Part shown: one piece after another, positions 15,402-17,351 of the stretch
How positions within the stretch are numbered: position 1 is the first letter of the stretch
How the letters are laid out: each line of letters begins with the position of its first letter
DNA from: Escherichia phage vB_EcoM_ESCO45
Sequence record: OM386661.1
Length of the DNA: 64,000 bases
Reading direction: 5' to 3' (one strand)
Program-made: the position numbers and the translations under genes
Notes under the pieces: model-generated
The model's database searches: none
What the model saw: the letters and a program-made list of their open reading frames with translations, nothing else
Told to the model about the DNA's origin: nothing

Positions 15402-15901
15402 AATGACCTCAAAGTTATATTAAATTTTGTATTACGTTGAGTATAAAAATAAGCTATAACACCTGACTTGTCAACAGATTTTATAGCTTATTTGGCAGAT
15501 TTTTTATAAGGCTACTGCCATCCTTCCATACCAAACCTCACCTGACCTCGCCTAACCCTACCTTACCCCACCATACAGCACCTTATTAAAACACCCTGTT
15601 TAAAGACCTTTTAAAAAGGTAAGTCTCATTTTAATGTAGCTGAGACTAACTACCCATACCTCACCCTACCAGACCCTACCAGACCAGACCTTACCCTACC
15701 AGACCCTACCGAACATCACTTAAAAACCCTCTTAGAAGACTCTTAAGTGATGTAATCGAATTTTAATGTAGCTCCGATTAACTACCCATACCTCACCTCA
15801 CCCAACCATACCATGCCTTGCCAGACCGCACCTTACCTCATTAAAAGACCCTCTTAAAAGACCTTTTAAAAAGGAGCCTCCGAAGAGGCTACCTAGTCAA
15901 C
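15402..15901 (-). repeat. structured intergenic region 1: G-depleted C/A-rich tracts alternating with conserved hairpin modules
   Basis: ACCCTACCAGACCCTACC at 15663-15680 and 15693-15710; hairpin AGTCTCA-N12-TGAGACT at 15622-15647; variant hairpin with compensatory changes at 15754-15779; 10-bp inverted repeat CATCACTTAA/TTAAGTGATG at 15714-15752. Confidence 0.7.
15862..15892 (-). terminator. rho-independent terminator (minus strand) after gene 15902-16342
   Basis: AGCCTC-cgaa-GAGGCT hairpin with T5 run on minus strand. Confidence 0.55.
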
Positions 15902-16342
15902 TTAGAAAGGTTTTCTACGTTGCTTGTTAATGTTAGCTTTCATAGCAGCTAAATGGTTTTGCTGTTCAATCAGTCGTGAACGTTCTTGATGACTAAGCGC
16001 CATAGTGTTCACATTCTCAATTGCTTGAGTGGCTTGCTTTAAAGCTCGACCAATCTTACCAGACATTTTGCGTTTTGCAATAGTTGCTTGATGCTTAGGT
16101 TCAACCACACGATAACCAACACCCATTGAAGCAACCAGATAAATCTTCTCTTCTTTAAGAAGCTTTTCAATAAACTTCTCAAGTCGGTTTAGACGTGTAA
16201 GTGCATAAGCCTTCATTTCATCTTCGTACTTAACAATGTCACCTTGATAAGTTGGCTTCACAATACCTAAGAAGGTGTCCATCTCGGAATGTGATACAGT
16301 GTCGCCGTAACTAAACTTTGCTGCTAATGCTTTTGTATTCAT
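15902..16342 (-). CDS. hypothetical protein (cassette gene 2)
   Basis: 146 aa ORF; followed by hairpin-T5 terminator at 15862-15892. Confidence 0.45.
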   Translation of the reverse strand: MNTKALAAKFSYGDTVSHSEMDTFLGIVKPTYQGDIVKYEDEMKAYALTRLNRLEKFIEKLLKEEKIYLVASMGVGYRVVEPKHQATIAKRKMSGKIGRALKQATQAIENVNTMALSHQERSRLIEQQNHLAAMKANINKQRRKPF

Positions 16343-16344
16343 AA

Positions 16345-16947
16345 TTAAACGTTACCTTCTGAAATAACTTCTACAGAAAAACGACCAAAGCGTGGACGCC
16401 AATCACCTACACCACAAAGGTTACCAGCATTTTCCAGAACCATCAGAAGTTCCTCTTTGGTGATTTGCTCTTCATCAAACATCAAACCGAACTCTACAGA
16501 CCAGTCACGGAAGATTGGACGGTAGCTCATAACTCGTGCTGTGCCAATTTTAACAGATTTAGCATAGATAAAGTCTGGATTCTTAGCAAGTTCTTGTGGG
16601 TTTGCTGGACAGTTCTTGATAGTCATTGGGAAGACTACATCTGTCAGCATAATGGCTCGGTCAATTACCTTACCAAGTTTGTTGAGTTTTGCACCAGACT
16701 TGATACAAGCCTCAATCATCTCACCGTTCATAACAAAACCTAGCTGCTCATCATAGTAACAGGAAGTTACCAGTTGGCTTTCTGCTAAGAGCGCATAGTC
16801 TTCGTCAGTCTTTTTACGTTTACTGGACAGAGACTTGTGATATTTTGTCAGAGGGTTTAATGGGTCTGACAACGTATCGTTATGGCTCAAGAAAGGACGA
16901 GTACCAGTGATTTTGATATTTAGCAGTTTCATAGCATTTAGCTCCAC
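16345..16947 (-). CDS. hypothetical protein (cassette gene 1)
   Basis: 200 aa ORF, no recognisable motif. Confidence 0.45.
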
Positions 16948-17351
16948 ACTTTAGTTGATTGTTAAGTTGTTTGTAAAGAACCCTCAACAGAAGACTCTTT
17001 AGAAACTTGGTAGATTTTTAACGTGGCTACTACCATCCACCCACACCGTGCCACACCACACCACACCACACCATACCCAACTCCACCTAACCCTACCACA
17101 CCTTATTAAAAGACCCTCTTAAAGACCTTTTAAAAAGATAAGTCTCATTTTAATGTAGCTGAGACTAACTACCCATACCGAACCTCACCGCACCATACTA
17201 CACCTGACACCACCTTACACCACCGCACCATACCTGACCGAGCTACACATCACTTAAAAACCCTTTTCAAAGACTCTTAAGTGATGCTGGTGAGTACCCG
17301 TTGGTTTATGCTGCTCAGTATACTCACCAAATTTTCTATGTCAACAACTTT
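16948..17351 (-). repeat. structured intergenic region 2: same module set as region 1
   Basis: (CCACA)x4 at 17051-17070; hairpin AGTCTCA-N12-TGAGACT at 17141-17166; inverted repeat CATCACTTAA/TTAAGTGATG at 17248-17286; AGACCTTTTAAAAAG palindrome-like box shared with region 1. Confidence 0.7.

Follow-up and report, generated by a model that had tools for sequence, protein, structure and literature searches.

Genes and repeats of the locus

The window analysed here is a 64,000-nucleotide (64-kb) stretch of the genome of Escherichia phage vB_EcoM_ESCO45 (record OM386661.1). A reading of the raw sequence made without tools had singled out one locus, in which two repeat-filled intergenic regions enclose two small genes, and every element listed in that initial annotation was found in its place. 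Tracts poor in G on the plus strand include (CCACA)n at 17051-17077 and ACCCTACCAG-type repeats at 15663-15710. A hairpin with the loop GCTACATTAAAA and flanking stems is present in three copies, at 15629, 15761 and 17148, a 10-bp inverted repeat (CATCACTTAA/TTAAGTGATG) in two, and a AAAAGGTCTTT box in three (15602, 15857 and 17121). The minus strand, to which the transcripts had been assigned, is indeed the functional one, and all features described below are given on that strand.

The locus opens with a predicted sigma-70-type promoter, P1 (TTGACA-16-TATACT, 17317..17344), which is near-consensus (11/12 matches), lies upstream of the first array and is invariant in sequence in 24 of 24 parsed related loci. 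It is followed by a leader hairpin, B1 (17247..17286), which contains the 10-bp inverted repeat and stands 5′ of vrRNA1 (17141..17242), a unit composed of 14 YNNGG repeats (17242-17173) and a 32-nt pseudoknot tail (17172-17141). A leader element termed box1 (AAAAGGTCTTTAAGAGGGTCTTTTAA, 17106..17140) precedes vrRNA2 (17009..17105), whose 13 YNNGG units (17105-17041) include a (GGTGT)4 run and are joined to a C-type pseudoknot tail (17040-17009).

Both of the protein genes proposed to lie between the repeat regions are present, except that the first starts at an ATG at 16932 and not at a GTG at 16947. This gene, vipr (16345..16932), encodes 195 amino acids and, by its match to PDB entry 36pp, a predicted RAMP-type RNA-binding protein. 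The second, a vap1-type accessory gene of 146 codons (15902..16342), is named for its identity to the gene adjacent to vipr in phage SUSP1. A hairpin resembling an intrinsic terminator (15875..15890) comes after vap1.

Three further arrays occupy the downstream region. Box2 (15841..15874) lies 5′ of vrRNA3 (15754..15840), which has 11 YNNGG units and an A′-type tail (stem AATCGGA/TTCGATT with one G-U pair). Leader hairpin B2 (15714..15753; -18.0 kcal/mol, z -6.1) lies 5′ of vrRNA4 (15622..15713), with 12 units and an A-type tail, and box3 (15586..15621) lies 5′ of vrRNA5 (15494..15585), with 12 units and a C′-type tail (AAGG/CCTT, GGCAG/CTGCC). A second predicted promoter, P2 (TTGACA-17-TATTTT, 15446..15493), sits within a 13-bp inverted repeat (fold -17.8 kcal/mol, z -5.3) and closes the locus on its downstream side; it probably drives the gene that follows (15401-15018). 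Besides vipr and the vap1-type gene, the locus has five vrRNA genes. Of these, vrRNA1 and vrRNA2 come before vipr and vrRNA3-5 after vap1, and all of the genes lie on the minus strand.

Searches for known relatives of the repeats returned little. Rfam gave no match at gathering thresholds across the whole 64-kb window, and BLAST of the repeat region found none in 5,426 E. coli genomes. Early literature searches on such repeats, including GGU repeats in phage, yielded nothing useful, and the passages of the Felix O1 genome paper around the searched terms do not mention the repeats.

Arrays, pseudoknot tails and leader elements

The pattern GGTNNGGTNNGGTNNGGT, with at most one mismatch, occurs 40 times on the minus strand of the 64-kb window against an expectation of 0.03, and these occurrences are confined to 15525-15837 and 17045-17239. 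The plus strand of the arrays contains ~7% G, counted over all five. In the pentamer logo the first three positions are G (0.87), G (0.98) and T (0.85, otherwise mostly C), and positions 4 and 5 are near random. Of all units, 99% have a pyrimidine in third place and 13-18% have another base instead of the first G; counted in a fixed register, 9.9 of 10 units retain Y and 8.2 of 10 retain G1. Each YNNGG unit thus combines a conserved GGY with a hypervariable NN dinucleotide. Among phages with identical flanking modules the arrays are hypervariable and differ in length by multiples of 5. The predicted vrRNAs of the window are 87-102 nt long.

These patterns bear on the suggestion in the initial annotation that the G-rich strand could form G-quadruplexes; the conservation of Y at the third position and the frequent replacement of the first G argue against a G-quadruplex element. 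A fuller version of this idea is that the G-rich non-template strand below P1 forms R-loops or G-quadruplexes that prime replication as an origin or regulate transcription. P1 is near consensus, two-tetrad quadruplexes are possible in principle from (GGNNN)n, and the locus lies among DNA-metabolism genes. However, a position-3 pyrimidine better conserved than G1 (9.9/10 versus 8.2/10) is not something that a quadruplex needs, G1 is replaced in 13% of units, and selection does not act on the G runs only with the loops left free. Also, loci differ in having anywhere from 1 to 6 arrays, the element travels with vipr across unrelated phages, and in the Vipr complex described below the guanines are flipped into protein pockets. 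We consider this explanation exceedingly improbable, although arrays not bound by protein could form two-tetrad quadruplexes.

Every array ends in a 32-nt H-type pseudoknot tail (5/5 vrRNAs in the window), in which two helices are interleaved by pairing of columns 1-4 with 15-18 and of columns 7-13 with 26-32. The three-copy hairpin is present and selected for its structure, as had been proposed, but it does not stand free and is instead one stem of this pseudoknot. The compensatory stem changes from which selection on structure was argued are real, and they reach the second, interleaved helix as well. Across the tails, 93% of cells are paired, compared with 28-38% in slid controls; 9 of 11 tail pairs vary on both sides across four tail classes, and none of 500 shuffles reaches the observed score.

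A leader element, RAG(G)TCTT...GAGGGTYTTT, can be read from the sequence in six copies, one before each vrRNA and one before vipr. In two copies it extends to an 18-bp strand-specific hairpin. As minus-strand RNA, B1 forms ~18 bp by means of G-U pairs (-16.1 kcal/mol, z -6.6), versus -9.5 kcal/mol for the plus strand. In sequence, the core of box1 is similar to the interior of the B hairpin. That the box element itself folds into an RNA hairpin is not supported, as its fold has a z of -1.2 and, as read in variants from related loci, changes at the would-be G-C pair are uncompensated.

Cassette proteins and the VIPR system

A protein search, which had been proposed for the cassette genes, identified the first of them. 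With phmmer against PDB, the 195-aa protein matches 36pp_D, the ‘SUSP1 Vipr protein’, over residues 1-195 (E=6e-128), and 191 of 195 residues (98%) are identical to SUSP1 Vipr. Thirteen of the 14 published contact residues are conserved (H17, K33, R39, E71, M72, K82, G87, K88, R138, C173, D177, W178 and R179), including the G-loop D177-W178-R179 and the thumb residue R138. The remaining contact, T175, is V here and also V in the SUSP1 protein as translated. By this homology the protein is Vipr, predicted to be a small (~20 kDa) RAMP with an RRM core, a glycine-rich loop and a thumb. The 146-aa protein is identical at 145 of 146 positions (99%) to the product of the SUSP1 gene immediately downstream of vipr, and we take it to be Vap1, a name that rests on position. 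Neither cassette protein has a match in Pfam, PADLOC or NCBIfam, and in PHROGs both fall in families of unknown function only.

VIPR (Viral Interference Programmable Repeat), first described in 2026, resembles CRISPR in being guided by RNA and serves phages to silence rival mobile elements (10.64898/2026.04.26.720920, 10.64898/2026.04.26.720927). These two preprints, which are still before peer review, show the mechanism experimentally in SUSP1, whose system is 98% identical to the one found here. There, vrRNAs of ~100 nt co-purify with Vipr and silence transcription of their targets, vap1 enhances protection, and Vipr is proposed to predate the RAMP proteins of CRISPR (10.64898/2026.04.26.720920, 10.64898/2026.04.26.720927).

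We conclude, with a probability of roughly 93%, that the minus strand of 15446-17344 carries, in a Felix O1-like phage, a VIPR locus of type II that belongs to the SUSP1 clade. Systems of this kind are already known from the two preprints (10.64898/2026.04.26.720920, 10.64898/2026.04.26.720927). The two repeat-filled intergenic regions consist of genes for small guide RNAs, five in number, whose partner is the protein encoded in the cassette that they enclose. Read on the minus strand, the tracts poor in G resolve into arrays of 14, 13, 11, 12 and 12 YNNGG units, within the VIPR range of 9-16, and the vrRNA genes occupy long intergenic regions on either side of vipr and vap on the same strand, as in other VIPR loci. 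The G-rich tracts are accordingly the guide parts of five vrRNAs and do not constitute the ‘elaborate control region’ once considered for them.

The SUSP1 locus, parsed identically, yields one upstream and three downstream vrRNAs, in agreement with its published layout. Along with the type II system of SUSP1 (PDB 36pp), the ESCO45 locus has a Vipr (98% identical), a vap1-type gene (99%), the P1 promoter, a leader hairpin, YNNGG arrays, pseudoknot tails and a target class consisting of a satellite with tail genes in common with its phage. The hosts of the two systems differ, SUSP1 being a Suspvirus and ESCO45 a Felixounavirus, as does the number of vrRNAs (2 + 3 in ESCO45, 1 + 3 in SUSP1). All guide sequences are different, and the ESCO45 system is known from sequence alone. 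We infer that expression, the RNA-protein complex and silencing carry over from SUSP1, and that its mechanism would extend to this phage.

If so, Vipr would form a filament on the vrRNA, with one protomer per repeat, sequestering the GGY bases and displaying the NN dinucleotides. Read end to end, the NNs would then base-pair with double-stranded DNA and leave out every third base of the target, and the resulting R-loop triplex would block transcription. Natural targets would be competing mobile elements, and vrRNA1 would be directed at the tape-measure gene of a satellite.

The likeness to Class 1 CRISPR-Cas, in which a Cas7 backbone forms on the crRNA, extends to a RAMP protein (RRM core, G-loop, thumb) that polymerises along a guide RNA, a thumb that flips bases periodically, and a variable guide capped by a conserved structured handle. 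Unlike CRISPR-Cas, VIPR is built from 5-nt units with no repeat-spacer array, has a noncontiguous guide, is a viral system and acts by repression instead of cleavage. No cas1 or cas2 was seen among the genes flanking the cassette, which are a ligase, an HTH regulator and unknowns, and the locus does not show the repeat-spacer array with cas1/cas2 that defines a CRISPR-Cas system.

Regularly spaced triplets can also serve a different kind of partner. TRAP of Bacillus binds as a ring, with one subunit per conserved (G/U)AG triplet, 2-nt spacers and ~11 repeats, and the arrays might be sites for a similar ring-shaped regulator that wraps ~11-13 GGU triplets at 2-nt spacing and controls termination or translation of flanking genes. 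The formal layout is that of a TRAP target (conserved triplets, 2-nt spacers, 10-15 repeats), and arrays in other phages often abut a ribosome-binding site. However, the partner identified here is a RAMP protein that would form a helical filament and no ring, and the neighbouring proteins, when scanned against Pfam, have HTH and ligase domains only. TRAP has another fold, and its spacers carry no information, whereas those of VIPR are the information; a spacer role leaves hypervariable NNs that match foreign genes under a one-nucleotide-skip code unexplained. Structures of Vipr with vrRNA have already largely refuted a TRAP-like reading, to which we give almost no credence.

This ring binder and the R-loop or G-quadruplex replication origin were both dropped after the protein was identified. 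So were a plus-strand rut site or Rho trap, an antitermination site of the boxA/boxB/boxC kind (in which GGTCTTTAA was presumed akin to boxA GCTCTTTAA), T7-type primase recognition sites (GGGTC/TGGTC), Shine-Dalgarno-like standby-site arrays and an RfaH ops-like element.

The pairing of arrays with Vipr recurs elsewhere. When IMG/VR was scanned for (GGTNN)7, arrays turned up in a large number of unrelated contigs, and a Vipr homolog is encoded directly beside the array in 34 of 57 unrelated viral loci with heterogeneous arrays. The link between protein and array was thus recovered independently of the preprints.

Targets of the guides

The gapped pattern of vrRNA1 has a single match in IMG/VR, which lies within the gene for the tape-measure protein of a satellite element found in E. 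coli. [quoted passage not shown] It is in frame, and the skipped base falls at the codon wobble position. The satellite-like element is 11 kb long, is integrated in yecE of E. coli and carries homologs of the tail genes of this phage; compared with proteins of the window, identity is 82% for its Dit-like protein and 25% for its tape-measure protein. Strain JNEC-KY173 is one bearer of the satellite (NZ_AP045169.1, around 2.24-2.25 Mb).

Guides from related phages extend this result. Seventeen of 58 give 36 matches of at least 85% in five copies of the satellite, compared with none in flanks of equal size. The matches need a skip of one nucleotide, as skips of 0, 2 and 3 give 0, 2 and 0 matches. 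The published one-nucleotide-skip code is therefore reproduced from sequence.

The mismatches between vrRNA1 and its target fall in the two units nearest the 3′ end. Cryo-EM intermediates suggest that target engagement begins near the vrRNA 3′ end (10.64898/2026.04.26.720920, 10.64898/2026.04.26.720927), and given that suggestion these mismatches count against the reading.

The guides of vrRNA2-5 found no target: their scores in the five satellite copies reach at most 77%, and vrRNA2 has no match in IMG/VR. Three IMG/VR matches to vrRNA3 (an 18-base pattern) lie in low-GC or giant-virus contigs and were judged to be chance. One 20-base match to vrRNA5 is probably chance as well, the only phage BLAST matches of that fragment being to Vibrio, Aeromonas and Shewanella phages. 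No self-target of at least 80% occurs in the 64-kb window, the best being at most 73%.

Distribution, recombination and orphan vrRNAs

Comparison of relatives bears out the proposal that the two genes form an inserted cassette with repeats at its boundaries, as the cassette is variably present and its edges lie within repeats. Related records carry vipr in 117 of 259 cases, and the two genes are missing from Si3, DE17 and others, about half of the Felix O1-like phages. In one related locus, L008, two tail repeats have recombined exactly, with an overlap of 62 nt. Tails and leader elements appear to act as recombination substrates through which the cassette is gained or lost between relatives.

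On another view, the modules would serve only as boundary or recombination repeats by which a two-gene moron is shuffled, and would otherwise be without function. In T4-type phages, promoter-early stem-loops (PeSLs) are repeated promoter/stem-loop modules that flank small variable cassettes, which are gained or lost when these modules recombine. Such recombination is real here too, given the variable presence of vipr (117/259) and the recombinant L008. We know of no PeSLs that act as guide-RNA genes or are bound by the protein of their cassette. Recombination leaves unexplained the strict GGY periodicity, the covariation of the pseudoknots and guides that match a satellite solely under a one-nucleotide skip, and the pairing of array and protein recurs in unrelated phages with different flanks. 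We judge such functionless repeats to be very unlikely. Under the VIPR interpretation, the repeats do bound the cassette, as first described, but because they are guides bound by its protein Vipr they are more than brackets, namely its functional partners.

Roughly half of the Felix O1-like phages, those without vipr and vap, have orphan vrRNA genes, which are no less intact than their counterparts in vipr-positive phages; some still match the satellite perfectly. Searches in the texts of the VIPR preprints found no mention of orphan vrRNAs or of the conserved leader element. One tentative and rather doubtful explanation is that the orphans are selected and act in trans, either with Vipr borrowed from a co-infecting relative or as decoys that titrate the Vipr of a rival, and that the leader is a signal for vrRNA biogenesis, such as a processing site or promoter. 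The five satellite copies encode neither Vipr nor YNNGG arrays, which removes them as a source of Vipr for the orphans.

VIPR is a recently reported mode of DNA reading by RNA, in which a noncontiguous guide pairs two of every five RNA bases with two of every three DNA bases. No new principle emerges from this window, but the association of protein with array and the one-nucleotide-skip code are recoverable from sequence data alone. Annotators of these phages can now put names to two ‘hypothetical proteins’ and to the ‘repeat_region’ features. VIPR is polymorphic among Felix O1-like phages, which are used in typing and therapy, and this polymorphism comes from recombination between repeats of the system itself.

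Pentamer arrays with pseudoknot tails

The window derives from a Felix O1-like myovirus (Felixounavirus), and the phages ULIM8 and dune are 96% identical to it over 4 kb around the locus. From ~12.2 to 22.6 kb every gene is encoded by the minus strand, on which the locus (15446-17344) is therefore read; the products include thymidylate synthase, DHFR, an HTH regulator, ligase and DNA polymerase. The G-poor tracts of the plus strand reported in the initial annotation are minus-strand arrays with a strict 5-nt period. Four successive GGTNN units occur 40 times on the minus strand of the 64-kb window against 0.03 expected, and these occurrences are confined to 15525-15837 and 17045-17239. 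Five arrays (vrRNA1 to vrRNA5) are formed by 14, 13, 11, 12 and 12 units, respectively. A conserved leader, either a 40-nt hairpin (B) or a AAAAGGTCTTT...GGGTCTTTTAA box, lies 5′ of every array, and every array ends in a conserved tail of 32 nt that contains the hairpin of the initial annotation, whose inverted repeat and boxes also are all present.

The tails fall into four sequence classes, all compatible with one H-type pseudoknot. Stem 1 is formed by GTAG:CTAC, GTGG:CCAC or AAGG:CCTT, and stem 2 by AGTCTCA:TGAGACT, AATCGGA:TYCGATT, GGTAG:CTACC or GGCAG:CTGCC. Pairing is observed in 93% of cells among 15 distinct tails, compared to 28-38% in slid controls. Both sides are changed in 9 of 11 pairs, and none of 500 shuffles attains the observed score, with few independent events because the sequences make just four classes. 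The structural observations made initially were right, and the hairpin is one stem of the pseudoknot. One tail stem contains a G-U pair, which is consistent with an RNA transcribed from the minus strand.

Identity of the cassette proteins

A sequence search of the PDB with the first cassette protein (gene at 16345-16932) retrieved entry 36pp, "SUSP1 Vipr protein", over its full length (E=6e-128). VIPR denotes Viral Interference Programmable Repeat, a system described for Escherichia phage SUSP1. The second cassette gene (15902-16342) is identical at 145 of 146 positions to the SUSP1 gene adjoining vipr, which from its position is taken to be vap1. Published RNA- and DNA-contact residues are present in the window protein at 13 of 14 positions; at position 175 both this protein and the SUSP1 translation carry V, where the paper gives T.

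According to two preprints (bioRxiv 10.64898/2026.04.26.720920 and 10.64898/2026.04.26.720927), Vipr of SUSP1 is a minimal RAMP protein, and its guide RNAs (vrRNAs), of ~100 nt, consist of 9-16 YNNGG repeats and end in an invariant 3′ tail, a pseudoknot in the SUSP1 clade. Each repeat takes one Vipr protomer, with GGY buried and NN exposed. As reported there, the NN dinucleotides base-pair with double-stranded DNA while every third target base is skipped, yielding an R-loop triplex that represses transcription, and protection is enhanced by vap1 co-expression. This experimental work concerns SUSP1, whose Vipr protein is identical to that of the window at 191 of 195 positions (98%).

An association between arrays and this protein family also emerged, independently of the literature, from a scan of IMG/VR for (GGTNN)7. 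Numerous viral contigs without relation to one another contain heterogeneous arrays of about 10-35 units, in many cases more than one, and 105 of 164 arrays are free of overlap with long ORFs. Their pentamer logo matches that of Felix-like phages, with G, G and T (else mostly C) conserved and positions 4-5 free. On clustering the ORFs of 57 heterogeneous-array loci, one family directly adjoining the arrays was found in 34, and it is homologous to the first cassette protein of the window (blastp E 1e-43 to 7e-4). At several IMG/VR loci (including L031, L148, L128, L138 and L147), up to seven consecutive vrRNA-like arrays are arranged head to tail, with very short linkers (…GGC-TAATG-GGT… or …GGC-A-GGT…) and no intervening hairpin. 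These probably correspond to other array architectures of the preprint.

The window carries a true VIPR locus of type II, whose position was given correctly in the initial annotation, and proposals that the region is an elaborate control region or forms G-quadruplexes were not borne out. Since a near-identical system is described in the 2026 preprints, the finding is already known.

Leader elements and variation among phages

Transcribed from the minus strand, the B element would form a hairpin of ~18 bp, G-U pairs included, with a folding energy of -16 to -18 kcal/mol (z about -6); on the plus strand only the outer 10 bp pair. The box, related in sequence to B but shorter, has no significant fold, and a third variant was located by eye in the vipr leader. 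All three may be processing sites or promoters. A bipartite element, RAG(G)TCTT-N5-7-GAGGGTYTTT, also was recognized by eye in six copies, one 5′ of each vrRNA and one 5′ of vipr (16933-17008, 17106-17140, 17247-17286, 15841-15874, 15714-15753 and 15586-15621). Term searches of the two VIPR preprints returned no mention of this element, or of leaders, biogenesis or maturation, or RNA processing.

An inverted repeat of 13 bp, AAATAAGCTATAA...TTATAGCTTATTT, encloses the downstream promoter P2 (15446-15493) and is near-invariant in 24 related loci, with a few point changes. The RNA form of this repeat has a folding energy of -17.8 kcal/mol (z -5.3), and a U-rich run follows it. It could be a terminator of the vrRNA5 transcript or an operator, in the latter case perhaps bound by the HTH protein encoded at 14512-14811. 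Elsewhere in the window, ~1.5 kb at 54750-56290 lacks ORFs of at least 50 aa and is AT-rich, with dense short direct repeats on the same strand. It holds ~3.7 copies of AAAGTTACTCA plus TAAAGCACT-like units, and 14 of the 24 window copies of CTTGTTAR lie inside 55214-56167, all on the plus strand. An origin, a terminal repeat or a packaging region may be located here.

Among the 24 related loci parsed, the flanking modules are essentially invariant and the arrays are almost wholly different between phages. Divergent arrays retain the GGT phase and differ in length by multiples of five, and the number of array units per region ranges from one to three. The repeat region is matched by 230 phage records, the surrounding 4 kb by 259, and vipr at 90% identity or more by 117 Ounavirinae records of the phage collection. 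A vipr copy 99.5% identical to that of Felix-like phages occurs in a 147-kb record labelled Staphylococcus phage SA1 (GU169904.1); the assembly may be mixed or wrongly labelled.

The suggestion of a recombination-delimited cassette held up. Both genes are absent from Si3, DE17 and six other loci, which have one region running from the upstream promoter P1 (17317-17344 in the window) through one or two arrays to P2. In one related locus, L008, the window's upstream region up to the tail of array 1 is fused, over an overlap of 62 nt, to the part of the downstream region that starts at the tail of array 4, and this is the expected product of recombination between two tail repeats. Loci lacking vipr and vap (L004, L005, L008, L015, L016, L017, L023 and L027) each carry one or two orphan vrRNA genes. 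GGY periodicity is intact in these orphans, with 7.8 perfect units of 10 versus 8.2 in vipr-positive phages.

Predicted guide targets in a satellite-like island

Guides were decoded as NNx, with a 1-nt skip. The vrRNA1 guide core has a single exact match in IMG/VR, inside a tape-measure gene, and on extension 24 of 24 bases agree across the first 12 NN and 25 of 28 overall. The match is in frame, which places the skipped base at the wobble position of the codons. For vrRNA2-5, neither IMG/VR nor five satellite copies yielded a convincing target, and the window holds no self-target, its best match being at most 73%.

The element matched by vrRNA1 is an 11-kb island in yecE of E. coli (L150 14057-25252, from strain JNEC-KY173, NZ_AP045169.1, with variants L151-L154). 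It encodes a serine recombinase, a Dit-like baseplate protein, a tape-measure protein, a Dam methylase and an HTH protein; capsid genes, terminase genes, vipr and YNNGG arrays are absent from it, and none of the five copies encodes Vipr. Among 5,426 complete genomes of E. coli, only 6 cover at least 80% of a 7.2-kb query taken from the island.

When 58 guides of related phages were compared with the five island copies and equal-sized flanks, the 1-nt skip gave 36 matches of at least 85%, all within the islands and contributed by 17 distinct guides; the flanks had none. With skips of 0, 2 and 3 nt the numbers of matches were 0, 2 and 0. Some orphan guides fit the satellite perfectly, such as one from L015 (22 of 22). 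The VIPR preprints report a satellite phage as the common natural target of guides of the SUSP1 clade. The Dit-like protein of the island is 82% identical to the product of 2191-2955 in the window, and its tape-measure protein is 25% identical to that of 2-2167, similarities that would fit a satellite exploiting such phages.
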